From: Candidatus Zixiibacteriota bacterium
GTDB taxonomy: Bacteria; Zixibacteria; MSB-5A5; GN15; FEB-12
Length of the DNA: 64,000 bases
NCBI GenBank assembly: GCA_036826635.1
Contig: DAISVY010000003.1
Coordinates: forward strand, 31,180-95,179
Direction of reading: 5' to 3'
The position numbers and the translations under genes are program-made. Positions 12,639-29,449 of this stretch are shown here, one piece after another. A model generated the notes under the pieces. It did no database searches. It was not told the origin of the DNA and saw only the letters and a list, made by a program, of their open reading frames with translations. Numbering within the stretch: position 1 is the stretch's first letter; the number at the start of each line of letters is the position of its first letter.

Positions 12639-13061
12639 TATCTATTTTGCCGGAGTGTATGAGAGTATTTCGCTCGCGTCAATTGAGGTAGTGTTGAGAT
12701 AGACGCGCGTCTTTTTGCGTTATATCTGTTGTGCTTGATGAAAACAAACGATTATGCCATCACTGTGTATGTGAAGGTCTGTTTACTTTGGAAGGACATG
12801 GTATGAAAGAAACATTCCCCCTGTAAAATACACCCTCCCAAAGTTAAGAGCCCCTCACCCCCTCGTTTAGTGCACCCGAAAATTAATAATCCGACTTATT
12901 ATTTTTTCAACGTGGAACCCACCCTTTCATAATACATATTATATTATGGCCGTGAGCCGGGGGACGATAGCCACCGCCAAAATACCGGCGGACAGGTCCG
13001 ACTCACGGGGAGTCTCGCAGCCGATTGCTCGCCGTTACTCCGAAAATGGACTGGCACGCAA

Positions 13062-13616
13062 TTGACCGAAGACATCGACAAGATTTGGCAACAGGTAGTC
13101 TCCGGCGATCATCGCGCCTGGCGTGAACTGGTCGGCCGTTATGCCCCGCTGGTAATCACGGTCGCCCGCCGGGTCGGCCTGAGTGGCCCCGATGCCGAGG
13201 ACTGCGTTCAGCATACCTGGATGGCCCTCTATCGCCACCGCCGGGTCATCAAGGACCCCGCGCGCCTGCCCGCCTGGCTGATCAAGACCACCCAGCGCCG
13301 GGCCGTGCGCACTTTGCAGCGTCTCAATCGTGATGTTGATCTCGATTTTAACCTCGAACCGGAAAATCCCGGCCCGTTACCCGACGAAGAAATCGTCCGG
13401 CTCGAACGTCAGGCGATTCTCGAAATTGCGCTGGACAAGCTCGACCCGCGTTGTGGCCGCCTGTTGCGGGCGTTGTTTTTTGCCCCGGAAGATAAATCGT
13501 ATCGCGAAATAGCCAAAGATCTGGCCGTGTCGCCCAACGCGCTCGGACCGTTGAGGTCGCGATGTCTGAAAAGACTGGAGAAAATCTTAAAAGAAATGGG
13601 ATACCTGCCGGACTAA
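13062..13616 (+). CDS. ECF sigma-70 factor
   Basis: Region 2 (AWRELVGRY...DAEDCVQHTW...LPAWL) and region 4 (LDPRCGRLL...SYREIAKDL...LGPLRSRCLKRL). TTG start; no upstream in-frame ATG before the stop at 12930. Confidence 0.92.
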   Translation: MTEDIDKIWQQVVSGDHRAWRELVGRYAPLVITVARRVGLSGPDAEDCVQHTWMALYRHRRVIKDPARLPAWLIKTTQRRAVRTLQRLNRDVDLDFNLEPENPGPLPDEEIVRLERQAILEIALDKLDPRCGRLLRALFFAPEDKSYREIAKDLAVSPNALGPLRSRCLKRLEKILKEMGYLPD

Positions 13617-13661
13617 ACTGTCCCGGAGCGGCTCTTTACAAGTAGCAGGGTATCCAGGGAG

Positions 13662-14231
13662 ATGGATATGTCAAAACCGGTAAAGCATCCGGGAAGGGTA
13701 AAAATGCTCAAAGCGGTGAAAACAGGAAAAGTATCGTTTCGCGAACATCTTGAAGATTGCGACGACTGCCGACGCTTATTTCGGCTGCTCTCACAATATG
13801 ATGTAAGCGGAAACACCGAGCTGGATCGACCGAGCATACAGGCCGTGGAAGCCTGGGCGGCGGTGCCGCTTTTGTACGGCAGGAACGGCCGGGTGACCCA
13901 TGTTCCGGGTGAAGTATCGTTCGATTCCTGGTCGCACCGTCCCGCTTTGGAACTTCGCGATATCGGCGTCGGCCAGACCCGACGCGTATGCCTGAAAGCG
14001 GGTACGATTCAACTGGAAATCGTGGCCGGGCGTCTTCAGGAACAATGGGAATTTACGGCGCGCATATATAAAAGGAAGGTGGCGACCTCGGAGTTCGTTC
14101 TTCGGGCCGGCCGTTGCAAGCTGCTGGCGAAATCACGCGGTTTTTATCACTGGTCGTCGCGGACCGCACCGCGGACGATAAGGCTGCTGTCACCTTCGCT
14201 TGAGGTTGATTTCGAAAAGTTGTCATGGTAG
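13662..14231 (+). CDS. Putative soluble zinc-binding anti-sigma factor (ZAS-like)
   Basis: N-terminal HLEDCDDC = H-x3-C-x2-C; directly downstream of the ECF; no TM helix; beta-rich C-terminal half. Confidence 0.65.
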   Translation: MDMSKPVKHPGRVKMLKAVKTGKVSFREHLEDCDDCRRLFRLLSQYDVSGNTELDRPSIQAVEAWAAVPLLYGRNGRVTHVPGEVSFDSWSHRPALELRDIGVGQTRRVCLKAGTIQLEIVAGRLQEQWEFTARIYKRKVATSEFVLRAGRCKLLAKSRGFYHWSSRTAPRTIRLLSPSLEVDFEKLSW

Positions 14232-16954
14232 CCAGAGACATCCATAATATGGAGCGCATTGCGCGGGTTTTTCTGACCACCGGTAAATGTACCGGTGTTG
14301 ATTTGGAAACGCTGAGCCGTGAGTGCAACCGTATTGTTCGCCGCGAGACCGAAAAATCAGCCTCCCGGGCAATTGAACTGGGCAGGCAGTTCGTCAGGCG
14401 GGCCGAACAGTATGGCGGAGAAATGGCGGCCACCGCCTGCCGTGCGCTTGGCTGGGCATATCTGGTGGCGGGAAAATTCCACGACGCCCACCGGACTTAT
14501 CTTAAGGCCCGCGATCTGGTCAAACGTGACGCTCTGGCGCGCGCCCGGGTTGACCGCGTGTTGATCGATGTCTGCATGTATCTGGGCGATCTGAAACAAG
14601 CCCGACGCCATGCCCGACTGGCGATGAACACTTTCGAAAAACAACATGCCGAATCTGACCTGGCCAAGACGAAAGTAAACTATGCCAACCTGTTGCACCG
14701 ACAGGATCGCCATCGTGAAGCGGGTCGGCTCTATGCTCAGGCGGCCGATTTCTTCGACGCTCAGGGGAACGATCTGGCCGTAGCTTTCTGTTTGTACAAC
14801 CGCGCCAACACTCTCGTACAGTTGTTTGATTTCGACGAAGCGGCCTCGTTGTATCGCCGCGCGCATAAAATCTTTATTGGGCATGATCATCACCTTCGCG
14901 CCAACGGCTGCCAGTACGGTTTGGCGTGGTTGCACATGCTTGAAGGTAATTTCCATGTCGCGCTTCAGGAACTGGCCGAGTGTGAGGATAGCTATAGAAA
15001 AGCGTCGCAGGACCGTGAAGTTGTCCTGTGTCAGCTCGACCGGGCCGAGGTCTTCCTGGGGTTGAATTTGTTCTCCGATGCTCGGGAGATGGCCCGGGAA
15101 GCCGAACGAAAAGCGCGTAAACTCGGAATAAAATACGAGGCGGCCAAGGCGGCCTTGTTTTACGCCAAGGCGTCGGTGGGTATCGGAAGAAAAACGGACG
15201 CCCGCGGAGCTTTGAAGCGGGCCGAGGATGATTTTGCCCGGGAGAACAATAAGCCGTTCCTGGCGGCCGTACATCTGGCTCAGGCTCAGATTAATGATGG
15301 CAAGTCGAAACGAATGGCCGAGCTTGAACACGTGGGCAGGAAGTTTTCGCAGGTTCAGTTGCCGTTGTGGGAAGCCATCTGTGATCTTCAGCTTCTCGCC
15401 GCGCGTCCCGATGACGCCCGTCCTCTGAAAAAACTCCGGAGAAATAAAGCGGTCAAAACCGTACCGCATCTCTTTGCCTGTTGGCAGACGATTTTGGGTG
15501 ACCGTGAAGCTGAACGTCACCGTATCGACGCCGCGGTCGATCACTGGAACCGGGCGGCCGATCTTCTCGATGCCGTACGGGCGAAGCTTCCCCCGGTCGA
15601 TATGCGTTCGGCGTTCTCGCGTCGGAATACCGATCCGCATCGTCGACTGGTTCAGGTTGAGGCGGGACGGGACCCCGTTGTGGCTTCCTGCTGGGCGGAA
15701 CGTCTGAAGACAGCGGGAATCTGGAGTGTGCCGGATGACGCTTTTGAGGCCAATCCGGCTCGCTCCAGAGCGCTGGAGAGTTTGTCGCAGCTCGCCGATC
15801 AGGCCGCGGCCTTGTCGTGGAAGATCAGCGAAAGCGCCGGACGGCGCGCGGCTGTTCGGATCGAGACAAACAAAATTCTGGAAAAGCTGCAAAGAAAGGT
15901 CCGACAGGATCTCGCCATAGCCGAGAAACCGGATTCACGAACGGCCGATTCGCTGGGTAACCTTCGAAGGCTGATGCTTGAGGCATCGATGCAACGTACG
16001 GTGGTGCAGTTCCATCTCAATGGTGATGATGTATACGCTTTCGTGCATGAGCGGGGCGCGACCCGTTGTCATCGCTACCGGGGCGGCGCGCGCATGGTCG
16101 GGCAACTAATGGGGCGATGGCGCTTCATGGTCGAGCGGGCTCCGTTTGCATCCGGTCGACCGAGCGTGTCCGATCTGCAGGACGAACACCGGTTGCTCGC
16201 GGATATCGGGGCCTGGTTGTGGTCGCCGCTGGAAATCTCCCGGCGACGGGAAAAGCTCCTGATTCTGCCCGAGGGGCGGTTGTCTAACCTGCCCTGGTCG
16301 GCGATAGTCAATGGTGGTGAAGCGCTGGTTGTTTCTCACGATCTGGTTATTTCGCCGAGCCTTCGGCATTATCTCCATGCGCAGGCACAGAAGTCGCGGT
16401 CGAAGCAAATCCGGGTTTTTGTCGGCAATACCGATGGACTCTCGCAGGCTCGACAGGAATATGCGCCGCTGGTGGCCGCAGGTAACGGTGAGGTGCTCAT
16501 AAACGATCCCTGTCGGCGTTCCGACTGGCCCGATGCCGGTGCGGCCCGCGTGTGGCACTACACCGGTCACGCGCAGCTTCGTGGCGACAACCCGTTTTAC
16601 TCGTCTCTTATTCTGTCCGATGGTCCGATATTCGCGGCTGACTTCCGATTGAAAAGAAACCGCGTCGGACTGGTTACCCTGGCGGCCTGTCGCACCGGAG
16701 AGCAGGCTTATCAGGCGGGTGAAGAATCCTCCGGGCTGGTGCGGTCGTTTATGGAAATGGGTGCCCGTAACGTGGTGGCCAGTCACTGGGCGGTTTCGGA
16801 CCGAGCGACAGCATATTGGATGAAAAAGTTTTACGATAGATACCTGTCCGGTCGATCGGCCGGTCGGGCGGCAAGAGAAGCGGCTATTCAGGTGCGAGAA
16901 AAGTATCCGTCGGCTTACCACTGGGCGGCCTTCTCCGTTTATGGAGCCGGATGA
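14225..16954 (+). CDS. TPR-repeat + CHAT (caspase-like, clan CD) protease
   Basis: About 330 aa of TPR-like helices, then a CHAT domain: LILPEGRLSNLPW, HYTGHA (catalytic His), LVTLAAC (catalytic Cys), GARNVVASHWAVSD, HWAAFSVYG. Confidence 0.93.
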   Translation: MVARDIHNMERIARVFLTTGKCTGVDLETLSRECNRIVRRETEKSASRAIELGRQFVRRAEQYGGEMAATACRALGWAYLVAGKFHDAHRTYLKARDLVKRDALARARVDRVLIDVCMYLGDLKQARRHARLAMNTFEKQHAESDLAKTKVNYANLLHRQDRHREAGRLYAQAADFFDAQGNDLAVAFCLYNRANTLVQLFDFDEAASLYRRAHKIFIGHDHHLRANGCQYGLAWLHMLEGNFHVALQELAECEDSYRKASQDREVVLCQLDRAEVFLGLNLFSDAREMAREAERKARKLGIKYEAAKAALFYAKASVGIGRKTDARGALKRAEDDFARENNKPFLAAVHLAQAQINDGKSKRMAELEHVGRKFSQVQLPLWEAICDLQLLAARPDDARPLKKLRRNKAVKTVPHLFACWQTILGDREAERHRIDAAVDHWNRAADLLDAVRAKLPPVDMRSAFSRRNTDPHRRLVQVEAGRDPVVASCWAERLKTAGIWSVPDDAFEANPARSRALESLSQLADQAAALSWKISESAGRRAAVRIETNKILEKLQRKVRQDLAIAEKPDSRTADSLGNLRRLMLEASMQRTVVQFHLNGDDVYAFVHERGATRCHRYRGGARMVGQLMGRWRFMVERAPFASGRPSVSDLQDEHRLLADIGAWLWSPLEISRRREKLLILPEGRLSNLPWSAIVNGGEALVVSHDLVISPSLRHYLHAQAQKSRSKQIRVFVGNTDGLSQARQEYAPLVAAGNGEVLINDPCRRSDWPDAGAARVWHYTGHAQLRGDNPFYSSLILSDGPIFAADFRLKRNRVGLVTLAACRTGEQAYQAGEESSGLVRSFMEMGARNVVASHWAVSDRATAYWMKKFYDRYLSGRSAGRAAREAAIQVREKYPSAYHWAAFSVYGAG

Positions 16955-16994
16955 GATCGCACGGTATTCGATGAGTATGCAGGAGGAAAGTGTA

Positions 16995-19900
16995 ATGATT
17001 AAGAAAGTGAACCGTCTGAATTCGTTTGGGCCCGCGATGGTGATTCTGTTGACCCTTCTGCTATTGTGCATGGGGATGACAAACAGTGTTATCGCCGGGC
17101 CGGCGGAAAAAGGAATGTCCCAGGACCGCAACTACGCTCCGGATAGTCGTGACAATACGGGGCCGGACGGGGCCTATGTTCAGGGGGAACTGGTCATCAA
17201 ACTGGGCGGTTGCGATTCGGTTGTGATTGATGACATCTGCCAGAAATACGGGGCTTCCGTCAATCGTTATTTCGAGGACCTTGGCATTTACGTATTGAAC
17301 GTGAACGGCGAAACCGATCATGATTCTCTTTGTTCGATAATCGAGTCGTATTCCTGCGTCGTTTTTGCTCATCCCAATTACCGTGTCGATCCTCTTCAGC
17401 CGGTGCAGGGAAGTTTTCCGTTCTCGGATGAAAATTTCGCCGGTGATTACCGGGGACAGTTCGCCGCGACGGCGCTTGATCTGTCGTCCGCCCAGGCCAT
17501 CGCTACCGGAGCCGGGGTCAGGATTGCCGTGATCGACGGTGGCATTAATTACAGGCATCCGGCGTTTGAAGGTAAGGCGGTATCGGGTTATGACTTCGTA
17601 GACGATGATGCCGATGCTTTCGACGAATCCGGAGGGCCGAACACCGGGCACGGTACGTTTATCGCCGGAGTCATTCATCTGGTGGCCCCCGACGCGGAGA
17701 TAGTCGCTTATCGTGTCAGTGAGACATCGGGCACCAGCGACGGCGATTTGGTGGCCGAGGCCATCGTGAAAGCGGTGCATGACGGGTGTCAGGTAATCAA
17801 CCTGAGTCTGGTGGTTATGGAAGAACATCAGGTAATCAAGGCTGCGATAGAGTACGCCAGGGAAAATAACGTCATCGTGGTGGTAGCCGCCGGTAATGAA
17901 CAGATGGGCTCGCCTTTGTATCCGGCCAGCGATGAGAACGTGATTGCCGTGGCCGCCCTTGATTCCCTCGATCAGTTGGCGGAGTTCTCGCGATACGGAA
18001 GCCACATTGACGTGTGCGCCTTCGGAGAGGACGTGTACTCGCCGTTTATCGACACCGGCTATGCCTGGTGGAGCGGTACCAGTTTTGCCGCACCTTTTGT
18101 TGCGGGTCAGGCCGGACTGATTATTTCTCAGGCGCCGGAAGATTACACCTGGAGCCACACCCGCCAGATGATACTCGAAACGGCCGTGAGTGTCGATGCC
18201 GAGAATCCCGATTTCGCGGGTTATCTCGGAGCGGGGGTAATTGCCCCGTACGCGTCGCTGACGGTTTCGCTGGAGTCCGACAGTGCCTGGCTTTGGGAGG
18301 ACAACAAGCAGTTCACCATAAACGAGGGAGACCCCGATATCGGGCCGGTTTGTCTGATGGTGTCATCGACCAATGAACCCGCGCCGTTTACGGTGGCCCT
18401 GTCCGGGGAAGCTACGTTTACCACTCTGCGTGATTCGAGGGGTTACACTGGCGACACGCTCTGTTTCGATCTGGGAGGAAGTGCCCTCTCGCCGGGATAC
18501 TATGCCGACACTCTGATCTTCGAGGTTGAGGGAGTCGATAACAACCCGTTGATGGCGGTCTTCGAGTTGCAGGTCAACACCGACACCGCAGCATCGGATT
18601 TAGCCTGGGTGTATCCCAAAGTGCAGCAGTTTACGATGTACGAGGGGGATGAAACCGCCCTGGTCCGTTCGGTCAGCATATCTTCCAGCAATTCCCCCGC
18701 GCCCTACACGGCGACGCTGGTTAACGATGGTCTGTTTACCGATTTGCTGTGGGATTCGGGAATGACCAATGATACGCTTTCCTTCACGGTGAGCGCTGTC
18801 GGACTTACCCCGAACGTCTACACGGATTCCCTTAGTATCAGTGTGGAAGGGATAAGCTCTCCGGCTTGGGCGGTTATCGTTCTCCAGGTCTTGCCGCACG
18901 GCACTCCCCTCGACACGGCCTGGGTTTCCAGCGACGATCTGTATTTCGAGGCGGCCGAAGGTTCCTCCTGGGTTGATTCCAGCTGTGTGCGGTTGATGTC
19001 GACCAACGCTCCGGCGCCTTATACGGCTTACGTGGTGGGCGGTGAGTCTTCGTTCGTCTCTCTGCTGAATCTCGATGGCGGGGTCACCGAGGATTACATT
19101 TGCTATATAATAGATCCCACCGGTCTGGGGACGGGAGTCCATCGCGATTCCATGGTAATAACGGTCGAAGGAGTATCCAACTCGCCGCTTATAGTGCGGT
19201 TCACTCTGAACATAGTCGGTGGCGGGGACACGTTGGCCGCGGTTTCTCCCGATACGTTGTTCTTTACGGTTGTCCAGGGTGATACGCATGTCAGGACCGG
19301 CTGTGCCTGTCTTACTTCCTTCAATGCACCGTCGCCTTATATTGGCATAAACGACACCGACGCCGTTTTCACCACGTTGATAAGCACGGCCGGGGTTACC
19401 AACGACACTGTATGTCTTCTGGTCGATCCGTCGCTGATGCCGGTCGGTGTTCACTACAGTCGGGCCATGTTCTTTGTCGACGGTGTTGCCGAACGGATAG
19501 ATCTTATCACCTGTCTGACCGTGGTAGATGAAATCGGCCCCGACACGGCCTGGGTATCCAACGATTCATTGGGTTTCTGGGTCGAAGAAGGCACAAGTTG
19601 GCTTGACACCGGCTGTGTGTTGGTGTCTTCGACCAACGCTTCGGCCTTCTACACGGCGGAGGCATTCGGTGATCCGCTGTTCCTGTCGTTGGTCGACAGC
19701 GTGGGCAGCGGCAGTGGATTCACTAATAGTCTGGTCTGTTTCCAGATCAATCATCAGGGGCTGCCTCTTGGTGTCTACAAGGATTCCCTGATAATTGACG
19801 TTGAAGGTGTGACCAACTCACCGCTGGTCGTGCCGATTACATTGACCGTGTTCACCGCCGATACGCTGGTTGATATATCGCCCGATACGCTGTCCTTTAC

Positions 19901-20771
19901 GGCAACGCAGGGAGACACCGAGGTCATGACAGGACGTGCCTGGCTCTCCTCGTTTGATCCTCCCAAACCTTACGTTGCAATACTGGACACCGGTGCCGTA
20001 TTTACCTCGCTCGTTGATGTGGCCGGCATGACCGACGACTCCGTGTATGTCCAGGTCGATCCGTCCGGTGTTCCGACGGGTGTTCACTATGAACATGTTA
20101 TATACTGCGTCGATGAAAACTTAGGTACGGCTCGTCTGACCATCCGCCTGACGGTTGAGCCGTCCGGAGGAACGACCCCCGATAGTGCCTTCGTCGATCT
20201 GGACACGCTGTGTTTCACCGTCACGGAAAACGCGAATGACAGCATTGTGGGCTATGTAAGATTGTTCTCCAGCAATGCGCCGGCGGCTTTCAATGCCGTG
20301 GTGAATGACAGCGCAACTTTCATCGTCTGGTGCGTTAACGGCAGCGGTTTCACCGACGACTCGGTCTGTGTCTGTGTGCTTCCGTGGGATATCGGTGTAG
20401 GAACTCATTACACTTCCATCTCCTATTTCGTGGAGGGAGTCGCCGAGCCGGCCCGACTTGTCGTGTGTCTGACGGTCGAGGGTGCCGAGCACACCACCGT
20501 CGATCTTAGAGCCAATTTCCCCAATCCGTTTAACCCGGTGACCAACATCTCATTTGCCTTGAGTAATCCAGCGACAGTAGAGCTTTCCGTCTACAATGTG
20601 CTTGGTCGGAAAGTCGCCACGTTGATTAACGGAGATCTTCCGGCCGGTGAACACATAGTCGACTGGGACGGCACCGACAATACGGGTCGGGGAGTTTCCA
20701 GCGGCGTTTACTTCTATCGCCTGACAACGGGATCGTTCAGCGAGTCGAAGAAGATGCTGTTGCTCAAATAG
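16995..20771 (+). CDS. Secreted S8 subtilase with seven Ig/BACON-like repeats and a FlgD/T9SS-type C-terminal sorting domain
   Basis: AGGAGG RBS before ATG 16995; signal peptide and propeptide; triad IAVIDGG, GHGTFIAG, WSGTSFAAP and oxyanion AAGN; tail NFPNPFNP...IYNVLG-like...WDG...SSGVYFYRL...KKMLLLK. Confidence 0.93.
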   Translation: MIKKVNRLNSFGPAMVILLTLLLLCMGMTNSVIAGPAEKGMSQDRNYAPDSRDNTGPDGAYVQGELVIKLGGCDSVVIDDICQKYGASVNRYFEDLGIYVLNVNGETDHDSLCSIIESYSCVVFAHPNYRVDPLQPVQGSFPFSDENFAGDYRGQFAATALDLSSAQAIATGAGVRIAVIDGGINYRHPAFEGKAVSGYDFVDDDADAFDESGGPNTGHGTFIAGVIHLVAPDAEIVAYRVSETSGTSDGDLVAEAIVKAVHDGCQVINLSLVVMEEHQVIKAAIEYARENNVIVVVAAGNEQMGSPLYPASDENVIAVAALDSLDQLAEFSRYGSHIDVCAFGEDVYSPFIDTGYAWWSGTSFAAPFVAGQAGLIISQAPEDYTWSHTRQMILETAVSVDAENPDFAGYLGAGVIAPYASLTVSLESDSAWLWEDNKQFTINEGDPDIGPVCLMVSSTNEPAPFTVALSGEATFTTLRDSRGYTGDTLCFDLGGSALSPGYYADTLIFEVEGVDNNPLMAVFELQVNTDTAASDLAWVYPKVQQFTMYEGDETALVRSVSISSSNSPAPYTATLVNDGLFTDLLWDSGMTNDTLSFTVSAVGLTPNVYTDSLSISVEGISSPAWAVIVLQVLPHGTPLDTAWVSSDDLYFEAAEGSSWVDSSCVRLMSTNAPAPYTAYVVGGESSFVSLLNLDGGVTEDYICYIIDPTGLGTGVHRDSMVITVEGVSNSPLIVRFTLNIVGGGDTLAAVSPDTLFFTVVQGDTHVRTGCACLTSFNAPSPYIGINDTDAVFTTLISTAGVTNDTVCLLVDPSLMPVGVHYSRAMFFVDGVAERIDLITCLTVVDEIGPDTAWVSNDSLGFWVEEGTSWLDTGCVLVSSTNASAFYTAEAFGDPLFLSLVDSVGSGSGFTNSLVCFQINHQGLPLGVYKDSLIIDVEGVTNSPLVVPITLTVFTADTLVDISPDTLSFTATQGDTEVMTGRAWLSSFDPPKPYVAILDTGAVFTSLVDVAGMTDDSVYVQVDPSGVPTGVHYEHVIYCVDENLGTARLTIRLTVEPSGGTTPDSAFVDLDTLCFTVTENANDSIVGYVRLFSSNAPAAFNAVVNDSATFIVWCVNGSGFTDDSVCVCVLPWDIGVGTHYTSISYFVEGVAEPARLVVCLTVEGAEHTTVDLRANFPNPFNPVTNISFALSNPATVELSVYNVLGRKVATLINGDLPAGEHIVDWDGTDNTGRGVSSGVYFYRLTTGSFSESKKMLLLK
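18270..20483 (+). repeat. Seven tandem ~105-aa Ig/BACON-like domain repeats inside the S8 protein
   Basis: Each unit begins D(S/T)AW/xVSPDTLxF, contains SxNxPxP(Y/F) and G(Y/V/M/F)T(N/D)D, and ends VEGVxNxP...LxV. Boundaries approximate. Confidence 0.8.
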
Positions 20772-20917: not shown

Positions 20918-20946
20918 TTGACAATCGTGTTCGATGGAAGTATGTT
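20918..20946 (+). promoter_or_regulatory. Sigma70-type promoter
   Basis: TTGACA-N17-TATGTT upstream of CDS 21162. Confidence 0.6.
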
Positions 20947-21161
20947 GAAAGTGGTTTGGGGCTCTTCGCATTGTCATCGTGTACATAACCCAGAACAGAT
21001 CGGGAGACTCTCTGATAGCCTTCCGTTTTATAATACTGTGCTTGTGCTTTTACAGGTGTTTTACTCCCTGCGTGTCGGATACGAAGTATCGATGACGTTG
21101 TGATATCGTTGTGGATATTCAAGACTTAATCCACCATAACCCGTTAAGCATAGGAGGAGGG

Positions 21162-21890
21162 ATGAGACAGAAGTGTCTGACAGTATTTGTAGTTGTGCTG
21201 TTCTGTTTGGCGGCTGCAACGGTTTGGCCTCAGGGTCAGTATCTGATTCGCGGTGACGTGGACGGTGATGAGTTCGTGGGTTGGGATGACGTTACCGACC
21301 TGACGATGTACATTAACAGTGGTATACCCATGAATTGTCACAATGCGGCCGATGTGAACGACGATGGCACGGTGGGAGACATAGCGGATTTAAATCATCT
21401 GGTGAGTTTTCTGAATACCGGAGAACCACCGATCCCGGAACCGTATCCCGACTGCGGCATCGATGAGACCGACCCGCTCCCGGGCGAGGATTGCTGTGAT
21501 CCGGGTCAGTTCTTCATTCGCGGAGATGCCAACGGCAACGGCCGTGTGGGCTGGGACGACTATGTGGAGATCCACGAATACCTTTTCGCCAGCACTCCGA
21601 TGGAATGCCACAATGCGGCTGATGTCAATGACGACGGTTTCATAGACCTGAACGACCTGTATCACCTCGGGAATTTCCTGCAATGGGGAGAGCCGCCGAT
21701 TCCGGAGCCGTATCCGTTCTGCGGTCTTGATCCGACCGATCCGCAGCCCGGTGATGATTGCTGTCGACGGAGAATTCTCACGGCTGTGCCGTCGATTACA
21801 CTGATAGGCGCATTGGCTCTGGTAGTTCTTTTGATAGCGATCGGTTCCTGGTTCTATCTGAGAAAGAGGACCAACACGGTCGGTCATTGA
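21162..21890 (+). CDS. Twin dockerin-like domain protein with C-terminal IPTL-CTERM-like membrane anchor
   Basis: GGAGGAGG RBS; signal peptide; two 90-aa units (IRGDxxGxxxVGWDD...CHNAADVNDDG...GEPPIPEPYPxCG...CC) with a 270-nt period; tail VPSITLIGALALVVLLIAIGSWFYLRKR. Confidence 0.8.
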   Translation: MRQKCLTVFVVVLFCLAAATVWPQGQYLIRGDVDGDEFVGWDDVTDLTMYINSGIPMNCHNAADVNDDGTVGDIADLNHLVSFLNTGEPPIPEPYPDCGIDETDPLPGEDCCDPGQFFIRGDANGNGRVGWDDYVEIHEYLFASTPMECHNAADVNDDGFIDLNDLYHLGNFLQWGEPPIPEPYPFCGLDPTDPQPGDDCCRRRILTAVPSITLIGALALVVLLIAIGSWFYLRKRTNTVGH

Positions 21891-21934
21891 ACAATTAACC
21901 GCGGAAGGGCCCCGGTCAAAATTATCCGAAATAC

Positions 21935-21965
21935 AAAACCCGGCGAGAGTCCATCGCCGGGTTTT
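21935..21965 (+). terminator. Bidirectional-type terminator hairpin
   Basis: AAAACCCGGCGA-GAGTCCA-TCGCCGGGTTTT, between convergent ORFs. Confidence 0.8.
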
Positions 21966-22013
21966 CGTATATCTGAGAGCGAAAGCCGCTTTTGCGGCGG
22001 CAGGTTGATCCGA

Positions 22014-22601
22014 TTATGGGCCGAAGTCGGCCAGAGGGCCGTTGACTCGGCGTGAGGTTCGCTTCGGGGTCGTTATTTTGTCGACAAACGTTGAGACCGC
22101 CGGTTTGATCAGTTCGGCCAATACGTAAGCCGCGGCCCGCAACCACCACTGGCGACTGAACACCTGAATAATTACGGCCATTATTTCCGGCGTGTTCCGG
22201 GCCAGGGTCCGTCCCACCACCTGCCAGACTGTCAACTCGTCAGGGTCGGATATCGACGGGTGGTATGGTCGATCTGTTTCCGGTAGCTGCGATGGTTTTT
22301 CCGAAGAAAACTGTCCCGGTGAGTTGTCAATGCGGTATTCCTCGGTTTGGGTTCCCCGGGTAACGTCGCTGTTCATTTTCTTGAGATAATCGCTGGAATA
22401 ACAACGCGGACCGCCATAGACAGAAACGCCCCCGGTCAGCAACATAAGCGTCAGGGCAAGCAGCAGAAGGCGACCGAGTCCGCCGCAGGGCAGGTAAACC
22501 CCGGACGTGCCGTGTCGTGAACCTTCGTCTGTCGGACGGTGCGGATACATCATACCGTATAGCTCTGCAAAAACAGTGCCGCGACGCTCCATGTTACTCA
22601 C
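22014..22601 (-). CDS. Hypothetical protein with one hydrophobic segment
   Basis: Only a substantial ORF filling the gap; hydrophobic LLLLALTLMLLTGG; no recognisable family; start uncertain. Confidence 0.4.
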   Translation of the reverse strand: MSNMERRGTVFAELYGMMYPHRPTDEGSRHGTSGVYLPCGGLGRLLLLALTLMLLTGGVSVYGGPRCYSSDYLKKMNSDVTRGTQTEEYRIDNSPGQFSSEKPSQLPETDRPYHPSISDPDELTVWQVVGRTLARNTPEIMAVIIQVFSRQWWLRAAAYVLAELIKPAVSTFVDKITTPKRTSRRVNGPLADFGP

Positions 22602-23178
22602 CCGATCAGATGCGGAGCTTTGGAAACTGTTTCATATTGCATCAACAGGTATTCTCAGAGGATACCTGACGAGTACATCCCCTTGGATTCCGGGTACAAA
22701 CGAGTCGTGGCGCGGTGTCACCCCTTATATGACAAATTACGCCGGTCGGCGAAGTTTGCAAGCACATTTTGTCTCTCTTATTCGTCTCTATGGTGAGAGC
22801 CGTGCAACCGGGTGCAGATTAAGGGAAGAGGCGACACCGAAGGGCCATCGCCCGGCAGCACCATTGTCGTCTGGCGTCTGCGGAGTAACGGTGCCAATGG
22901 ACAGAACAAGGTTATCAATCTTGATACCGCGTTATTGAATCAGGCTCAGTGCTCGGATGGCGTGTGCAGCATTGAGTGGATACCTGAATACCAACCGTCG
23001 TTTCCAAAGCAGGAGAGAGGTTATATAATCTCCGCTGTTTTTGCCGATTCGGTTGTCTATACATCAGCTTTAAGATTCTCCTCGTTTGACCTCGAGTGAC
23101 CCGTCGCCTACGCGCACAAGTAAGTCGCTGTCCGTCAATGTCTTAACCTGAGGTCGGAATGGTCCGGTCCATAAGCTC

Positions 23179-23206
23179 TTGACAGATAATTAAACCGGGC
23201 TATATT
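23179..23206 (+). promoter_or_regulatory. Sigma70-type promoter
   Basis: TTGACA-N16-TATATT upstream of the C25 gene. Confidence 0.55.
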
Positions 23207-23392
23207 TTTAATGGAAGAACACACTAGGGATTGCTAAGACTTAATGCCCCCTTTACCGCCGTTTTTGTGTATCCCTTGTTAGAGTCAAGCTGCCGGAGAT
23301 CAGTGTCTCCAGGAGAAAATTGCCGATAGTTAATATGCAGGGGCATATTGCCACCGGTAGAAACAGCTACGAATGGGTATTGAGGTTAGTTG

Positions 23393-26300
23393 ATGAGCAT
23401 CAAACAACACCAATCGAAAAGTTATGGGATGACAACCTGTCATGGCATGACCACCCGTCATGGCATGACCGCCTTGACCACGGCTATTGCCACGTTTCTT
23501 ATACTGGCCCTCGGTTTTGCCGTATCTTCGGCCGAGGAAATAACCGCCGAATATACTTTTGAGCGGCCCAGTATCCGACCGGTGACTATGGGAACCGAGT
23601 CCTATGACCACGTAACTATCGAAGGTCTGTCCAACTCGGGCGAAGTGGGCGAGCCGTACCTTCCGGCCTCGGGGGCGAGAATTCTTCTGCCTCCCGGAGC
23701 GGACGTTGAGAGTGTTGAAATAATCCCCGATGAGCCCGTGGTGGTAGCCAGCGGTATCAAAGTTGAACCGGCCGAACGCCCGGTGCCGCTGTCTTCGATG
23801 CCGACCGGTGCCGCCCCGCCGGTGCCCAAAGCTTCGATTTACGAATCCAACGATCCTTTTCCGGCCGTTACTCATGAAACTATCGGGACGCATACTTTCC
23901 GGGGCTACCGTATTCTGGTCCTCAAGCTGTACCCGGTTCAGTATTACCCGGTTTCCGGGGAGCTAAGCTATTTTCCTCGCCTGACGGTCAAAGTCACGAC
24001 CCGCAACGCCACGGCTCAGGTGCCTTCGTTCCGCGGGCTTGTCCGTGATCAGGAAGCTGTTGAACGCCAGGTTGACAATCCTGAGATCGTTTCGCGGTAC
24101 CCGTCGTATCCGATGGCCACCGGCCGCGGGTATGACATGCTGATTCTTACGACCAGTTCGCTGGCTTCCGCTTTCGAACCCCTGAGGACGTATCACAACA
24201 ATACCGGGCTGCTTACCGAGATTCGTACGACTTCCGACGTCGGCAGCAACGATCCCGACGATGTCCGTGATTACATCAGGGACCGGTACAACAATGACGG
24301 TATCCAGTTTGTGCTGATCGGTGGCGACGATGACATTATTCCGGCCAAGGACCTTTACGTTATATCGTGGGAAGGAGACGGTTCCAGTACCGAGTACAAT
24401 ATGCCCGGTGATATATATTTCGCCTGTCTCGACGGTACCTGGAACTACGACGGTGACTCCTATGTCGGTGAACCCGGCGACGGTGAGAGCGGTACGGATG
24501 TCGATCTGATTGCTGAGGTGTATGTCGGTCGCGCTTCGGTCAGTTCTTCTTCCGAGGCCAGTCGTTTTGTCGAAAAAACGCTCGAATATCTCTCCACCCA
24601 AAGCAGCTATCTGGAACGGGTTCTTTTGTGCGGTGAGTATCTCGGATTCGGCGGTGTTTCCGATTATGCCGGGAACATGATGGATGAGATGGTCGACAGC
24701 TCGTACGCCGGCGGTAGTCTTACGGTATGTATTCCCTCGGATAAATTTACCATCGATGAACTGTATGATCGCGACTGGTCCGGTAATGACTGGCCGACTT
24801 CGGAAATAATCAGTCGTATCAACAGCGGCCGGCACATTATCAACCATCTTGGTCACGGTTACAATAATCAGGCCATGAAGATGTACAACAGCACCGTGGC
24901 CAATAACCTGACCAATAACGATCTGGCGTTCGTATATACCCAGGCCTGCCTTTGTGGTCACTTCGACAACACCGACTGCTGGGCCGAGTATATGTCTATC
25001 AAGACGAACCATGCCGCCTTTGCCCTGGTGGCGAACTCGCGCTATGGCTGGGGGGCCGAATATAGTACCGACGGACCTTCCCAGCGTTACAACCGCCAGT
25101 TCTGGGATGCCGTGTTCAACCCGAACGAGAACAAACCGCAGCTCGGTCCGGCCAATCATGATTCCAAGGAAGATAATCTTTACCGGATCAACGAGAGTTG
25201 TATGCGTTGGTGTTACTACGAAACCAACCTCTTCGGCGACCCGGCCGTGCATTTCAGGGGGCTCGGCGGACTGGTATTTGATTACCCGGACGGAACTCCC
25301 TCGACCGTAACCCCGGGTGAGACCACCGATTTCCAGGTTAATGTCAGTGGTGTCAACGGGGGCGATCCGGTTGCCGGCAGCGGACAGTTGCACTACCGCA
25401 TAAACGGTGGTTCGTATTTGTTTGTCTCGATGTCGCAGACGACGGCCAATCACTATACGGCTACTATTCCGGCCCTAAGTTGTGACGAGACGATAGAATT
25501 TTATGTGAGTGCCGAGGAAACTGTCACCGGCCGCGTGTATGACCCCCTGCCCAGTTCACCGAACAGGGCTGTTCCGGTAAATGACTCTCTGGTCGTATTC
25601 TCGGACAATTTCGAGACCGATCAGGGATGGAGTGTTTCCGGTGATGCCGCCGACGGTCAATGGGAGCGCGGTGTTCCGGCCAACGGCAACCGGGGCGACC
25701 CACCGACCGACTACGACGGTTCGGGTCAGTGTTATTTGACCGGCAATGTCGCCGGTACCGACATCGACGACGGGACAACTTATCTCGATTCACCGGTGTT
25801 CGATCTTTCCGACCGTGTCGGCGTGGTGCATTATGCCCGCTGGTACTGTAACGACTACGGTGCGAACCCCAACGAGGATGTCTTCGTCGTATACGTATCG
25901 AACGATGCCGGAACCAACTGGGAGGTCGTCGATACTATCGGTCCTGCCGAGATGGCTTCCGGCGGATGGTATGAAGATTCTTTCCGACCGGGCGATTATG
26001 TTTCTCTTACCGACCAGATGAAAGTTCGGTTTGAGGCCTCGGATTTGGGTGATGGTTCGGTAGTGGAGGCGGCTATCGACGACTTTCGGGTTTACGAATA
26101 CCTTTGCGGTACGATGGCCGACAGTGATGAAGACGGTGTGGCCAATTCTCTCGACAACTGTCCCTTTACGTATAATCCGTACCAGGAAGATGGCGACGAG
26201 GACGGTTACGGCGACGTTTGCGACAACTGCGAGACGGTCTACAATCCCGATCAGGCGGACAGCGATGGGGATGAGTACGGTAATCTCTGCGACAACTGCC

Positions 26301-26824
26301 CCGATGTGGCCAACCCCGATCAGATCGATGCCGATGACGACGGCTATGGAGCCGCTTGTGACTGCGATGATAGTAATGAAGATATCAATCCCGAAACTGT
26401 CTGGTATGCCGATGGTGACAGCGATGGTTTCGGTGCGCCGGGTACGGGTATTACGCAATGCGAGCAGCCGAGCGGTTATGTTCTGAACAATACCGACAAT
26501 TGCCCTTCCGTTTCCAATCCGGGTCAGACCGATACGGATCAGGATGGTTTTGGCGACGCCTGTGATGCCGTCTGCTGTATGGGTGAGCGTACCGGCAATA
26601 TAGACTGCGACGGGGAAGATTTGGTCGATATGGGCGATCTGACCGTATTGATCGATCACTTGTTCATCAGCCTGGCCCCTCTGTCTTGTGTCGGGGAGGC
26701 GGATGTTGACCTGTCCGGTCAGCCGAATCCTGTGCCGACCGATGTCGACATGGGGGATTTGACGGTGATTATTGATCATTTGTTTATCAGTCTTGATCCG
26801 CTGCCGCTTTGTCCGGCAAAGTGA
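23393..26824 (+). CDS. Gingipain-like C25 cysteine peptidase with propeptide, adhesin/MAM-like domain, TSP3-like Ca-binding repeats and C-terminal dockerin-like domain
   Basis: Propeptide (GEVGEPYLP), FVLIGGD, DIYFACLDG, VYVGR, catalytic INHLGHG and QACLCGHFD, NLFGDP; DxDxDG...DNCP repeats; CC...DMGDLTVLIDHLFISL twice. GAGG RBS favours ATG 23393. Confidence 0.92.
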   Translation: MSIKQHQSKSYGMTTCHGMTTRHGMTALTTAIATFLILALGFAVSSAEEITAEYTFERPSIRPVTMGTESYDHVTIEGLSNSGEVGEPYLPASGARILLPPGADVESVEIIPDEPVVVASGIKVEPAERPVPLSSMPTGAAPPVPKASIYESNDPFPAVTHETIGTHTFRGYRILVLKLYPVQYYPVSGELSYFPRLTVKVTTRNATAQVPSFRGLVRDQEAVERQVDNPEIVSRYPSYPMATGRGYDMLILTTSSLASAFEPLRTYHNNTGLLTEIRTTSDVGSNDPDDVRDYIRDRYNNDGIQFVLIGGDDDIIPAKDLYVISWEGDGSSTEYNMPGDIYFACLDGTWNYDGDSYVGEPGDGESGTDVDLIAEVYVGRASVSSSSEASRFVEKTLEYLSTQSSYLERVLLCGEYLGFGGVSDYAGNMMDEMVDSSYAGGSLTVCIPSDKFTIDELYDRDWSGNDWPTSEIISRINSGRHIINHLGHGYNNQAMKMYNSTVANNLTNNDLAFVYTQACLCGHFDNTDCWAEYMSIKTNHAAFALVANSRYGWGAEYSTDGPSQRYNRQFWDAVFNPNENKPQLGPANHDSKEDNLYRINESCMRWCYYETNLFGDPAVHFRGLGGLVFDYPDGTPSTVTPGETTDFQVNVSGVNGGDPVAGSGQLHYRINGGSYLFVSMSQTTANHYTATIPALSCDETIEFYVSAEETVTGRVYDPLPSSPNRAVPVNDSLVVFSDNFETDQGWSVSGDAADGQWERGVPANGNRGDPPTDYDGSGQCYLTGNVAGTDIDDGTTYLDSPVFDLSDRVGVVHYARWYCNDYGANPNEDVFVVYVSNDAGTNWEVVDTIGPAEMASGGWYEDSFRPGDYVSLTDQMKVRFEASDLGDGSVVEAAIDDFRVYEYLCGTMADSDEDGVANSLDNCPFTYNPYQEDGDEDGYGDVCDNCETVYNPDQADSDGDEYGNLCDNCPDVANPDQIDADDDGYGAACDCDDSNEDINPETVWYADGDSDGFGAPGTGITQCEQPSGYVLNNTDNCPSVSNPGQTDTDQDGFGDACDAVCCMGERTGNIDCDGEDLVDMGDLTVLIDHLFISLAPLSCVGEADVDLSGQPNPVPTDVDMGDLTVIIDHLFISLDPLPLCPAK
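23421..23474 (+). repeat. Three 18-bp tandem units in the C25 leader
   Basis: GTTATGGGATGACAACCT / GTCATGGCATGACCACCC / GTCATGGCATGACCGCCT (xGMTT-type hexapeptides). Confidence 0.85.
26573..26824 (+). repeat. Cys-flanked dockerin-like tail, copy 1 (copy 2 at 29207-29449)
   Basis: CCxGxxxGNxD...VDMGDLTVLIDHLFISLxPLxCxxExDVDxSGQPxP...DVDMGDLTxxIDHLFISLxPLPxCP is nearly identical in both proteins while synonymous sites differ. Confidence 0.9.
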
Positions 26825-26844
26825 GCGTTTCGAGTAAAACCCGG

Positions 26845-26877
26845 GGCCATTCGCTGATTGGGCGGATGGCCTTTTTT
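26845..26877 (+). terminator. Rho-independent terminator
   Basis: GGCCATTCGC/GCGGATGGCC stem plus T6. Confidence 0.85.
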
Positions 26878-27025
26878 ATTAGAGAGAGTCTGTTTGACGA
26901 ATGGATATATTTTTATATATTTATGATGAGGACGGTGGTCGAGTCGGATTCGGCTGCTGTGTCGTCTGTTTCTTATTCGCTGGCTTTCAGAACATAAGTT
27001 GAAAACTGACCATATCGGAGGCAAT

Positions 27026-29449
27026 ATGAAACCGGCAGTTCTGTTCACGCTCGTTGTTTCACTGACATTGGCCTGTTTTGTCTTTATCGGCTCATCCCTG
27101 GCAGATCCGCCCGGCAGCTTCGATCTTCGTGATTACAACGGAGAGAATTACGTTACGTCAATCAAAGACCAAAGCGGTGGCACCTGCTGGACTCACGGGG
27201 CCATGGCCGCTATTGAGGGCAACCTTCTCATGACCGGGGCCTGGGCGGCCGCCGGCGAGGAAGGTGAACCGAACCTGGCCGAGTATCATCTGGACTGGTG
27301 GAACGGTTTCAACGAACATAATAACGACGATATCGATCCTCCCTCCGGGGCCGGGCTGGAGGTCCACCAGGGCGGCGACTACCTGGTCACGTCGGCCTAT
27401 CTCTCCCGCGGCGAGGGAGCGGTTCGTGACATTGACGGCCAGTCATACGGGAGCCCACCGCTTCGTGATGACCCGAGTTTTCATCATTACTACGTGCGCG
27501 ATATGGAGTGGCTGACGGCGGGTTCTGATCTCAGTAACATAAACGCCATCAAAGAGAGAATCATGACCGAGGGTGTCATGGGTACCTGTATGTATTACGA
27601 CGGTACTTTCATGCAGAACTACATCCATTACCAGCCCCCCAGTGATCTTAACGATCCCAATCACGCCGTTGCTATTATTGGTTGGGATGATGACCTGGAA
27701 ACCCAGGCGCCTTTGCCGGGAGCCTGGTTGTGCAAGAACAGTTGGGGGGCCAGTTGGGGCCTTGACGGCTGTTTCTGGATTTCCTATTACGACAAGCACT
27801 GCTGTCAAAATCCGGAGATGGGGGCAATTTCCTTCCGGAACGTAGAGCCGATGCCGTATGAGCATGTTTACTATCATGATTATCACGGTTGGCGGAACAC
27901 TAAGACGGATTGCTTTAAGGCTTTCAACGCTTTCGAGTGTGCCCAGGATGAATTGCTTCTGGCCGTCAGTTTCTACACGGCCGTCGATTCGGTCGATTAC
28001 ACCGTACATGTCTACGACCGTTTTGAAGGCGGTGAATTGCTCGATGAATTGGCCGTTCAGACCGGGACGATTGACCTGAGAGGTTATCACACGGTAGATC
28101 TGGAGAATGCCGTGGGGTTATCCGATGGTGACGATTTCTATGTTGTGCTGGAAGTTTCCGATGGCGGTATGGCGTACGACCAGACTTCCGACGTTCCTGT
28201 TCTTCTGGGTGCCAGTTATCGTACAATCGTCGAGTCGGACGCCAAGCCGGCCGAGAGCTACTACCTTGAAGGGGGGAGCACCTGGTTGGATTTGTATGAT
28301 CTGGATTCCACGGCCAATTTCTGTATCAAAGCTCTTACCCTGGAGGCGGGCGGCATGCGGGTAACGCCTTCCGGGAATAGTAGTGCGGAAGGATCTCAGG
28401 GCGGTCCCTTCACACCTTCGGACTGGATTTACGGAATCAACAGTCGGTGCGAGGTGACAATCGATTATGAAGTCACTGTTGATCCCACCGTGGATTGGCT
28501 GACCATAACCAGCGGGGCAAGCGGCTCTCTGGCTTTTCTGGATAGTGCCGAAGTAACCCTGGAGCTGAATGGCAATGCCACCGCTCTCGGTGAAGGCGTT
28601 CATTTCGCGCCTCTGGAGTTTACCAATTTGACCAATCATGATGGTGACACCACGCGCCGGATCGTACTTGTTATCGGTAATAGCGAGACACAGTACGAAT
28701 GGCTGCTCGATACCGATCCGGGGTGGACTACCGAAGGCGACTGGGAGTTCGGTCAACCGACCGGAGGTGGGTCGCACCTGGGTGATCCGGACTGTGGGTA
28801 CACCGGAGACAATGTCTATGGTTATAATCTTGAGGGTGACTATACCAATGATCTTCCCGCAACGTTCCTTACGACTACCGCTATAGACTGTACCGATCTC
28901 TACGGTGTGCAACTGAGTTTCTATCGCTGGTTAGGGGTGGAGTCGGTAAATAGCTACGATGAGGCCTCGGTGCAGGTAAGCAGTGACGGTGTGGACTGGA
29001 CCGTCATCTGGTCGGCCACGGCCACCGGTGGATATATCTCCGATTACGCATGGACTTTCCAGTCGTTCGATTTGCCCGGCAGCGTTGATAACCAGCCCAA
29101 TGTATACATCCGCTGGGGCATGGGCGCCACGGACCGCTCTCTGACCTACCCCGGCTGGAATATCGATGACATCCGTATTTCGGCCGTTTCGGCCGGTGCC
29201 AGTGGTTGTTGTGTGGGTGAGTCGGTCGGTAATATGGACGCTGTTCCCGGTGTCGTTGATATGGGCGATCTGACCGTGCTGATAGATCACCTGTTTATCA
29301 GTCTTGACCCGCTGCCTTGTATTGAAGAGGGCGACGTGGATATGTCCGGCCAGCCGGATCCGATAGCTTCCGACGTCGACATGGGTGATCTGACGCTATT
29401 GATAGATCATTTGTTTATCAGTCTTAATCCGCTGCCGCCGTGTCCATAG
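27026..29449 (+). CDS. Secreted C1A papain-family cysteine protease with lectin-like, BACON-like, adhesin-like and dockerin-like domains
   Basis: GGAGG RBS before ATG 27026; DLRD, KDQSGGTCW (Gln/Cys), NHAVAIIGW (His), KNSWG (Asn); C-terminal dockerin-like tail. Confidence 0.92.
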   Translation: MKPAVLFTLVVSLTLACFVFIGSSLADPPGSFDLRDYNGENYVTSIKDQSGGTCWTHGAMAAIEGNLLMTGAWAAAGEEGEPNLAEYHLDWWNGFNEHNNDDIDPPSGAGLEVHQGGDYLVTSAYLSRGEGAVRDIDGQSYGSPPLRDDPSFHHYYVRDMEWLTAGSDLSNINAIKERIMTEGVMGTCMYYDGTFMQNYIHYQPPSDLNDPNHAVAIIGWDDDLETQAPLPGAWLCKNSWGASWGLDGCFWISYYDKHCCQNPEMGAISFRNVEPMPYEHVYYHDYHGWRNTKTDCFKAFNAFECAQDELLLAVSFYTAVDSVDYTVHVYDRFEGGELLDELAVQTGTIDLRGYHTVDLENAVGLSDGDDFYVVLEVSDGGMAYDQTSDVPVLLGASYRTIVESDAKPAESYYLEGGSTWLDLYDLDSTANFCIKALTLEAGGMRVTPSGNSSAEGSQGGPFTPSDWIYGINSRCEVTIDYEVTVDPTVDWLTITSGASGSLAFLDSAEVTLELNGNATALGEGVHFAPLEFTNLTNHDGDTTRRIVLVIGNSETQYEWLLDTDPGWTTEGDWEFGQPTGGGSHLGDPDCGYTGDNVYGYNLEGDYTNDLPATFLTTTAIDCTDLYGVQLSFYRWLGVESVNSYDEASVQVSSDGVDWTVIWSATATGGYISDYAWTFQSFDLPGSVDNQPNVYIRWGMGATDRSLTYPGWNIDDIRISAVSAGASGCCVGESVGNMDAVPGVVDMGDLTVLIDHLFISLDPLPCIEEGDVDMSGQPDPIASDVDMGDLTLLIDHLFISLNPLPPCP
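29207..29449 (+). repeat. Cys-flanked dockerin-like tail, copy 2
   Basis: See copy 1 at 26573-26824. Confidence 0.9.

Follow-up and report, generated by a model that had tools for sequence, protein, structure and literature searches.

The subject of this work is a four-gene cassette in a 64,000-nt window of DNA from Candidatus Zixiibacteriota bacterium (assembly GCA_036826635.1, contig DAISVY010000003.1, positions 31,180-95,179 of the forward strand); coordinates are given as positions within this window unless another locus is named. The cassette spans 13062-20771 with all four genes on the + strand. Inspection of open reading frames (ORFs) and Pfam and NCBIfam scans gave the order extracytoplasmic function (ECF) sigma factor, small soluble HxxxCxxC protein (hereafter the partner), protease with tetratricopeptide repeats (TPR) and a CHAT domain, and exported S8 subtilase. 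All sufficiently long related loci share this gene order, an arrangement far beyond chance. An earlier note had read the locus as a CRISPR-free signalling module in which the CHAT protease cuts the partner to release the sigma factor. Its account of four tightly packed, co-directional genes proved accurate, and the 45-nt sigma-partner spacer, 7-nt partner-CHAT overlap and 40-nt CHAT-S8 spacer that it gave are right for the start codons it used. The features of the cassette are as follows.

12904-12933, + strand: tentative candidate sigma-70-type promoter of the sigma gene, TTTTCA-N18-CATAAT (consensus scan, 9/12 matches)
13062-13616, + strand: ECF (group IV) sigma factor, 184 aa, TTG start (Sigma70_r2, 6.7e-13; TIGR02937)
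13610-13636, + strand: predicted ECF-type promoter, GGACT-N17-CTCTT (cross-locus motif comparison)
13662-14231, + strand: partner, with a soluble N-terminus resembling zinc-type anti-sigma (ZAS) domains (residues ~1-70) and a C-terminal beta-sandwich (~75-187)
14225-16954, + strand: cytoplasmic TPR-CHAT caspase-like protease, 909 aa (CHAT, 7.7e-37; TPR_12, 9.4e-12)
16995-20771, + strand: exported S8 subtilase, last gene of the operon (Peptidase_S8, 3.9e-42; ATG at 16995 after GGAGG)

Conservation of the cassette and its proteins

Thirty-five loci were collected through single-protein look-ups and a scan of species-representative genomes with a clade-specific partner alignment; 33 contain relatives of the cassette, and the other two (L032 and L033) come from plasmids and served as unrelated controls. 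When the four window proteins were used as tblastn queries, the sigma, partner, TPR-CHAT and S8 genes were recovered on one strand in every sufficiently long locus, and the gene order is kept down to partner identities of 19-24% (L034, L035 and L007). The hosts are metagenome-assembled genomes (MAGs) of Zixibacteria/GN15, several of them mislabelled 'Ignavibacteria', and of Candidatus Eisenbacteria. No cas genes were found in any related locus or among the scanned neighbours in the window, and the 64-kb window holds no CRISPR array. The earlier note had proposed that the genes be sought across phyla without cas genes; linkage without cas genes is kept in the related loci, but the hosts are just Zixibacteria plus Eisenbacteria. 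A tblastn search of plasmids with the CHAT protein returned only unrelated CHAT-domain proteins, and the two plasmid CHAT contexts inspected contain type VI secretion and two-partner-secretion genes in one case and sugar/lipopolysaccharide-type genes in the other. Since the plasmid CHAT genes of cultured bacteria lie in such unrelated contexts, the cassette is lineage-specific and not general to CHAT genes.

The closed 3.4-Mb Zixibacteria genome CP070824.1 carries two cassettes about 3 kb apart (L030 and L031). The partner gene of L030 (7486-8004 of that locus) encodes a zinc-less 172-aa protein with a basic N-terminus, in a cassette that is otherwise intact. Two complete tandem cassettes are also present in Candidatus Eisenbacteria JACRPT010000057.1 (L029, 1661-6850 and 7210-12615).

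The first gene of the cassette encodes a member of the ECF family. The TIGR02937 sigma70-ECF model matches residues 19-175 with 75.9 bits (cutoff 42.9), and the closest solved relative is CnrH (7e-07). Orthologues with 42-61% identity are present in all related loci.

The TPR-CHAT protein is uniform among its orthologues (~905-910 aa, 46-59% identity). Its start at 14225 is favored by 908-aa orthologues, while one database gene call places the ATG at 14249. Both catalytic residues lie exactly where the earlier note had put them, with the codon of His782 at 16568-16570 ('YTGHA') and that of Cys822 at 16688-16690 ('AACRTG'), and the dyad is invariant in 47 aligned orthologues. The protein has no signal peptide or transmembrane segment, the highest 19-residue hydropathy being 1.15. 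With an N-terminal TPR superhelix and a C-terminal CHAT caspase fold bearing the His-Cys dyad, it belongs to the separase/Csx29/DdvA class; Foldseek placed its AlphaFold2 (AF2) model, which has a mean confidence (pLDDT) of 87.1, closest to separase (7e-14), Csx29 (~1e-12) and DdvA (7.6e-12). At the sequence level, phmmer against PDB sequences gave no match, the Csx29 chains included. Overlap between the stop codon of the partner and the start of CHAT is kept in nearly all loci and implies that translation of the two proteins is coupled. In one locus (L007/L018, 1378-3967) tblastn recovered the L007 TPR-CHAT gene in two pieces separated by ~120 nt, and its gene call is a fragment of 348 aa. This split gene, and the split S8 genes described below, are either pseudogenes or MAG assembly errors.

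The partner matched no Pfam or NCBIfam family at E<=0.01. Its start is better placed at ATG 13668 (187 aa) than at 13662 (189 aa), as judged by orthologue lengths and a GGGAG ribosome site, and the sigma-partner spacer then becomes 51 nt. Close relatives were few in a word-indexed database, while an exhaustive profile search extended the family to ~200 cluster representatives at 50% identity, nearly all of them stand-alone proteins of 170-200 aa. This is a genuine, previously undescribed family. The earlier description of a soluble H-x3-C-x2-C protein without a transmembrane helix was borne out, as the highest 19-residue hydropathy is 0.58. The motif reads HLEDCDDC at residues 29-36 (numbered from 13662), and an N-terminal HxxxCxxC occurs in 88 of 125 full-length family members. 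Among 42 zinc-type members, H27, C31 and C34 (numbered from 13668) are invariant and H7 is at least 90% conserved; we take these four residues to be a ChrR-like His-His-Cys-Cys ligand set. The partner therefore has the HxxxCxxC and upstream His in an N-terminal helical domain that characterize ZAS proteins. When a profile of the N-termini of the 42 zinc-type members was searched against 177,635 distinct PDB sequences, the top matches were RsiW (2e-4), RslA (0.022), DdvA-Nt (0.077) and, twice, ChrR (0.4), all of them zinc-type anti-sigma domains. The commonest Pfam match in the family is zf-HC2, found in 21 of 121 members and always below threshold. Eisenbacteria partners (203 aa) have a more canonical N-terminus (ALDYLEGLL...HLAGPCPEC) with an Hx4Cx2C spacing. 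On these sequence grounds we conclude that the partner N-terminus is a divergent ZAS anti-sigma domain, predicted to bind zinc and to sequester the sigma factor.

The invariant core of the family is the C-terminal ~130 residues, which contain FDSW, R97, R105, LELVAER, W.FVARVY, GFY.W.S..PPR and a terminal W. Since the cassette is retained with a zinc-less partner in the case open to inspection (L030), it is the beta-sandwich and not the ZAS motif that forms the conserved core of the partner. The AF2 model of the partner (pLDDT 83.8) has three short N-terminal helices, with the zinc motif lying across helix 2, the turn and helix 3, followed by a less confident helical linker at 45-75 and an all-beta sandwich that is broken up by a low-confidence loop around the invariant Arg97. 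A Foldseek search with the whole model returned nothing significant (best CrdA, E 0.048), leaving the beta-sandwich without a fold match, and weak sub-threshold matches to CarboxypepD_reg were limited to the beta-domain of Eisenbacteria partners (E 0.0015). The partner is the fastest-evolving protein of the cassette, at 22-58% identity versus 42-61% for the sigma factor and 43-59% for CHAT. Fast evolution is typical of anti-sigma factors.

The S8 gene always lies directly downstream of the CHAT gene. Its product has an N-terminal signal peptide, a fervidolysin-type prodomain (Fervidolysin_NPro-like, 8.4e-08) and a FlgD_ig/type IX secretion system (T9SS) C-terminal sorting domain (Por_Secre_tail TIGR04183, 42.5 bits against a cutoff of 23), as expected of a subtilase exported as T9SS cargo. 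The triad was correctly called complete in the earlier note. The D/H/N/S catalytic residues are present, and they are kept in all orthologues together with a signal-like hydrophobic N-terminus. The C-terminal module varies among orthologues and can be a T9SS tail, a dockerin or absent. Between the catalytic domain and the T9SS tail, at ~18400-20400, the window protein has about eight divergent repeats of ~100 aa ('...DTAWVS...F...EG...C..L.S.NAPAPYTA...'); no DNA-level tandem repeat was found in this region, and orthologues of other clades have a dockerin or nothing in its place. The S8 gene is split by an apparent frameshift in L004 (12421-13471) and in L010. We considered the subtilase as a site-1-type protease acting on the partner and rejected this role, since every locus encodes an exported S8 and the partner is a cytoplasmic protein.

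The junction motif and the surroundings of the cassette

The 90 nt before the partner start were aligned across loci, revealing a bipartite motif with high information content in two blocks and low information content in the 17-nt spacer between them. Of 24 loci, 23 have the form GNAC[GT]-N17-CTCT[GT] in the 75 nt that precede the partner start, the background rate being 0.005 for a window of this size; L001 deviates by one base, and L030 has a CTCCT variant. The instance in the window is GGACTAAACTGTCCCGGAGCGGCTCTT (13610-13636), its -35 block overlapping the last sigma codon and the TAA stop, with a predicted transcription start near 13643. The suggestion of the earlier note that an ECF promoter could lie between the sigma and partner genes is thus strongly supported by the comparison across loci, but its second candidate, the CHAT-S8 spacer at 16954-16995, contains no promoter motif. 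The motif resembles RpoE-type promoters (GAAC...TCTG). The element lies within the sigma coding sequence in the L004 clade, across the stop codon in the window clade, and wholly in non-coding DNA in L017. As it is kept whatever its coding status, the constraint acts on the DNA.

Within the window, 13610-13636 is the only instance of the motif upstream of a gene. In other loci the same motif stands after the terminator that follows S8, upstream of 19 of 20 DUF5666-like genes, and, in the opposite orientation, ahead of divergent genes adjoining the sigma gene. Its strict form occurs nine times in 406 kb versus ~0.2 expected. The plausible downstream products, encoded by long adjacent ORFs, all have signal peptides and most have a lipoprotein box; a few motif matches precede only short, doubtful ORFs. 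The position of the motif at the sigma-partner junction suggests that the sigma factor, presumed to recognize it, probably drives partner, CHAT and S8. Since S8 lies downstream of the junction promoter in the operon, its induction by the sigma factor is plausible.

The sequences 5' of the sigma gene gave a different picture. Across loci they contain sigma-70-like elements only, and counts of 5-mer/4-mer pairs there were uninformative, being dominated by close relatives. The L004 clade has an element clearer than the tentative one of the window, TTGGAC-N18-TATTAT, directly 5' of the sigma ATG. These elements suggest that the housekeeping sigma factor transcribes the sigma gene and that there is no autoregulation. 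The most economical reading is that the sigma factor is made constitutively and, when active, drives partner-CHAT-S8 and the neighboring exported-protein genes. In L004, L010-L016 and L027, a conserved hairpin, CCCGAGTCT...AGACTCGGG, followed by a T-rich stretch lies ~150-200 nt upstream of the sigma gene and probably terminates the gene before it. In this clade only ~9 nt separate the sigma-70-like -10 element from the downstream sigma ATG, suggesting that the sigma mRNA is leaderless or nearly so.

Downstream of the cassette the window contains a cluster of genes for secreted proteins:

21111-21890: dockerin/EF-hand protein
23390-26824: C25 gingipain-like peptidase with thrombospondin repeats
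26999-29449: papain C1 peptidase with a lectin-like domain

The earlier note had raised the possibility that the sigma factor also controls this cluster (21111-29449). We rejected this extension, as the junction motif was not found before the dockerin, C25 or C1 genes and the cluster has sigma-70-like promoter candidates of its own at 20918-20946 and 23179-23206. The genes around the cassette are otherwise ordinary and include an ammonium transporter, a two-component system, ABC exporters and amidotransferase subunits. The last of these comprise a 740-aa GatB_N protein (29679-31901, 1.5e-46) and a 473-aa Asparaginase plus GatD_N protein (31855-33276), a pair that looks like GatE/GatD, the archaeal-type Glu-tRNA(Gln) amidotransferase, on an otherwise Zixibacteria-like bacterial contig. 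About 25 kb from the cassette, at 41589-44228, lies a LonC/LonB-like AAA protease gene (AAA_32, 5.8e-45; Lon_C, 1e-09). Its product is a candidate degrader of a cleaved anti-sigma fragment; no evidence of linkage to the cassette was found.

Proposed switch and alternative explanations

These data led us to a model in which the locus is a self-contained, CRISPR-independent sigma/anti-sigma/protease signaling cassette of Zixibacteria and cutting of the partner by CHAT frees the sigma factor, a reading to which we give about even prospects of being correct. The ECF sigma factor would be made from a housekeeping-type promoter and kept inactive by binding of the partner's N-terminal zinc-type anti-sigma domain, while the beta-sandwich would dock the partner on the translationally coupled, cytoplasmic TPR-CHAT protein. 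A cytoplasmic signal read by the TPR array would then activate the His782/Cys822 dyad, and CHAT would cut the partner, perhaps in the 45-75 linker or the Arg97 loop, with the sigma-binding fragment lost or degraded. From the GNAC(G/T)-N17-CTCT(G/T) promoter, which lies where its own gene ends, the freed sigma factor would transcribe partner, CHAT and S8; in other genomes the same kind of promoter would also serve the adjacent exported lipoprotein genes (DUF5666-like). The output would be a secreted or surface-anchored subtilase, and fresh anti-sigma would reset the switch by negative feedback. A broader form of this model we hold only tentatively, and think rather more apt to fail than to stand. 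It describes a free-standing switch in which an ECF sigma factor is released when a TPR-CHAT protease, itself soluble and gated by a ligand, cleaves a dedicated anti-sigma, a soluble ZAS-type protein from a family not recognized before; this CRISPR-independent switch might represent an ancestral form of the Csx29-Csx30-sigma logic, might supply the missing anti-sigma of ECF54-like groups, and would govern secreted proteases rather than immunity.

Several observations weigh against the cleavage model. Zinc ligands are lacking in 37 of the 125 full-length partners (~30%), which have a basic, low-complexity N-terminus instead; in these, sigma binding must work differently or not at all. The zf-HC2 score of 16.0 bits is below the gathering threshold of 22.2, outside strict Pfam membership. 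The second cassette of CP070824.1 (L031) has a zinc-type partner and no recognizable junction motif, and the loci are phylogenetically related, so that motif counts do not represent independent events. The contacts of the partner with the sigma factor and with TPR-CHAT are ones that we infer, as are the cleavage, the signal and the recognition of the motif by this sigma factor. The position of the CHAT and S8 genes, both 3' of the sigma-dependent promoter, also means that CHAT could be an output of the system and not its input.

This last point is central to the possibility that the partner is a redox- or thiol-sensing ZAS anti-sigma of the RsrA/ChrR kind that releases the sigma factor by itself, with TPR-CHAT and S8 as mere outputs and CHAT not acting on the partner. 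The HxxxCxxC motif with its conserved upstream His would suit such a sensor, and a sigma-dependent promoter upstream of partner, CHAT and S8 formally makes all three outputs. We nevertheless think self-release doubtful, as the zinc-less partner of L030 keeps an identical cassette, the conserved core of the partner is its beta-sandwich and not the zinc site, and the partner gene, translationally coupled to that of CHAT, never occurs without it or the reverse; it would also be odd for a secreted-protease regulon to have as an output a cytoplasmic protease of 900 aa that is gated by TPRs and keeps an invariant dyad. The same coupling, together with the existence of zinc-less partners, is consistent with another arrangement, in which TPR-CHAT acts directly on the sigma factor or on some other substrate and the partner serves CHAT as a chaperone or a securin-like inhibitor and is not an anti-sigma. 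The best fold match of TPR-CHAT is indeed separase, which is held by a pseudo-substrate inhibitor. We judge this arrangement unlikely, given that the partner N-terminus specifically matches solved anti-sigma domains and that its gene always stands immediately after the sigma gene, as in sigma/anti-sigma pairs.

The junction element might belong to another regulator, or might act as an RNA or translational element, and not be the promoter of this sigma factor at all. In one clade it falls inside the sigma coding sequence. Its two conserved blocks with a fixed 17-nt variable spacer, the likeness to the RpoE-type consensus, its retention regardless of coding status, and its recurrence after terminators, before genes for unrelated exported proteins and, where genes diverge, on the opposite strand make a non-promoter role distinctly unlikely. 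We regard as highly improbable, and as the weakest of the alternatives, an anti-phage or conflict system, in which a CRISPR-less relative of craspase or of the DdvA-controlled defense islands would use CHAT to sense infection and the sigma factor to induce effectors. In its favor are the likeness of the CHAT fold to Csx29 and DdvA, the presence of duplicate cassettes in single genomes, and the link to defense of all known CHAT or Lon/anti-sigma/sigma triads (craspase, CalpL/T/S and DdvA). This low rating follows from the PADLOC models, which match none of sigma, partner or CHAT, from housekeeping neighbors in a window devoid of cas genes and CRISPR arrays, and from the content of the predicted regulon, which is made up of lipoproteins and a subtilase exported by Sec/T9SS and has no nucleases, NADases or pore formers.

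Relation to known systems and significance

Cleavage of a regulatory protein by a TPR-CHAT protease has precedents. Separase and Csx29 act on a regulatory protein along the TPR-CHAT surface (securin/cohesin and Csx30, respectively), and the same has been proposed for DdvA's own linker (PMC10028731, PMC11506125). In craspase an ECF-like sigma factor is bound by the N-terminal domain of Csx30, and its inhibition is relieved once Csx29 has cleaved Csx30; the cut falls in the C-terminal part of Csx30 and the N-terminal fragment is lost (PMC10028731). The window cassette shares with craspase a TPR-CHAT gene beside an ECF-like sigma gene and a soluble two-domain protein, for which sigma binding is predicted here, and the fold search with the window TPR-CHAT ranked Csx29 among its best matches. 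It differs in having no Cas7-11, CRISPR RNA, CRISPR array or Csx31, which places it outside type III-E, and in the lack of a sequence-level match to Csx29 or of any PADLOC match for the window proteins. The partner is a small ZAS-type protein in which no similarity to craspase components was detected. Target RNA cannot be the activator here, and the output is an exported subtilase versus cas genes.

The Myxococcus xanthus DdvA operon carries a C25 peptidase gene, and CHAT-mediated proteolysis (autoproteolysis) has been proposed as its trigger (PMC11506125). DdvS/DdvA likewise combines an ECF sigma factor, a zinc-type anti-sigma domain and a TPR-CHAT in one regulatory unit, and DdvA-Nt and the DdvA TPR-CHAT are both among the matches of the window proteins. 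DdvA, however, is one polypeptide that spans the membrane; its TPR-CHAT is periplasmic and lacks a three-helix active-site motif, and DdvA needs RseP. In the cassette the ZAS domain and TPR-CHAT are two soluble cytoplasmic proteins without transmembrane segments, an organization distinct from the DdvA type, and the partner has an additional beta-sandwich. The DdvS regulon consists of defense genes (cyclic-oligonucleotide-based CBASS and CRISPR systems), whereas exported proteases and lipoproteins are predicted here.

The closest catalogued context is that of ECF54, which is reported to include, as a conserved feature, carboxypeptidase(-regulatory-like), subtilase and CHAT-domain proteins and for which regulation by proteolysis has been proposed (PMC8999054). 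Of these, CHAT and S8 are present at the window locus. ECF54, which is without experimental characterization, is described as actinobacterial and without an anti-sigma, while the window cassette is from Zixibacteria and has a ZAS-like partner. In light of the weak CarboxypepD_reg match of the Eisenbacteria partner beta-domain (E 0.0015), the ECF54 'carboxypeptidase' may be the counterpart of the partner, and the ECF54 context may be the same kind of cassette in Actinobacteria. A screen of partner-family representatives for a composition like that of Actinobacteria, with look-ups of their clusters, gave no taxonomic assignment. With the CHAT and subtilase context of ECF54 already catalogued, the idea is less new than the earlier note implied.

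In CalpL-CalpT-CalpS of type III CRISPR, a soluble signal-activated protease cleaves a soluble anti-sigma and frees an ECF-like sigma factor, as is predicted for the cassette; that protease is of the Lon type and responds to cyclic oligoadenylate through SAVED, while TPR-CHAT has no nucleotide-sensor domain. The RsiW, RseA, RslA and ChrR systems share with the cassette a zinc-type anti-sigma domain encoded directly after the ECF sigma factor, with release by proteolysis or modification of the zinc site. Classical proteolysed anti-sigmas are membrane proteins cut at site-1 and site-2, in contrast to the partner, a soluble protein that has a caspase-like protease of its own in the cytoplasm, and the predicted sigma-dependent promoter of the cassette lies between the sigma and anti-sigma genes and not upstream of the pair. 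Release of an ECF sigma factor through the cutting of its anti-sigma by a dedicated protease is therefore an established principle, seen in craspase and, with a Lon protease, in CalpL/T/S, and it has been proposed for DdvA. Our literature search found no description of this cassette. Four features are new. The architecture is split between separate proteins and entirely soluble; the partners form a new family, recognized here as candidate anti-sigmas of ZAS-like type; the predicted promoter lies between the sigma and anti-sigma genes; and exported proteases and lipoproteins make up the predicted regulon.

If the proposed switch is correct, it would be the simplest known setting for control of a sigma factor by CHAT, consisting of two small soluble proteins and one soluble protease, with no need of a membrane, RseP or a CRISPR effector. 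The logic of craspase and DdvA would then be a general bacterial signaling device that is not confined to defense, and the partner would offer a candidate anti-sigma for ECF groups that are now listed without one. The cassette would also provide a new protein family and a sigma/promoter pair that might serve as an orthogonal genetic switch. Zixibacteria are uncultured sediment and groundwater bacteria rich in secreted peptidases, and the cassette would be a pointer to how extracellular proteolysis is controlled in them.

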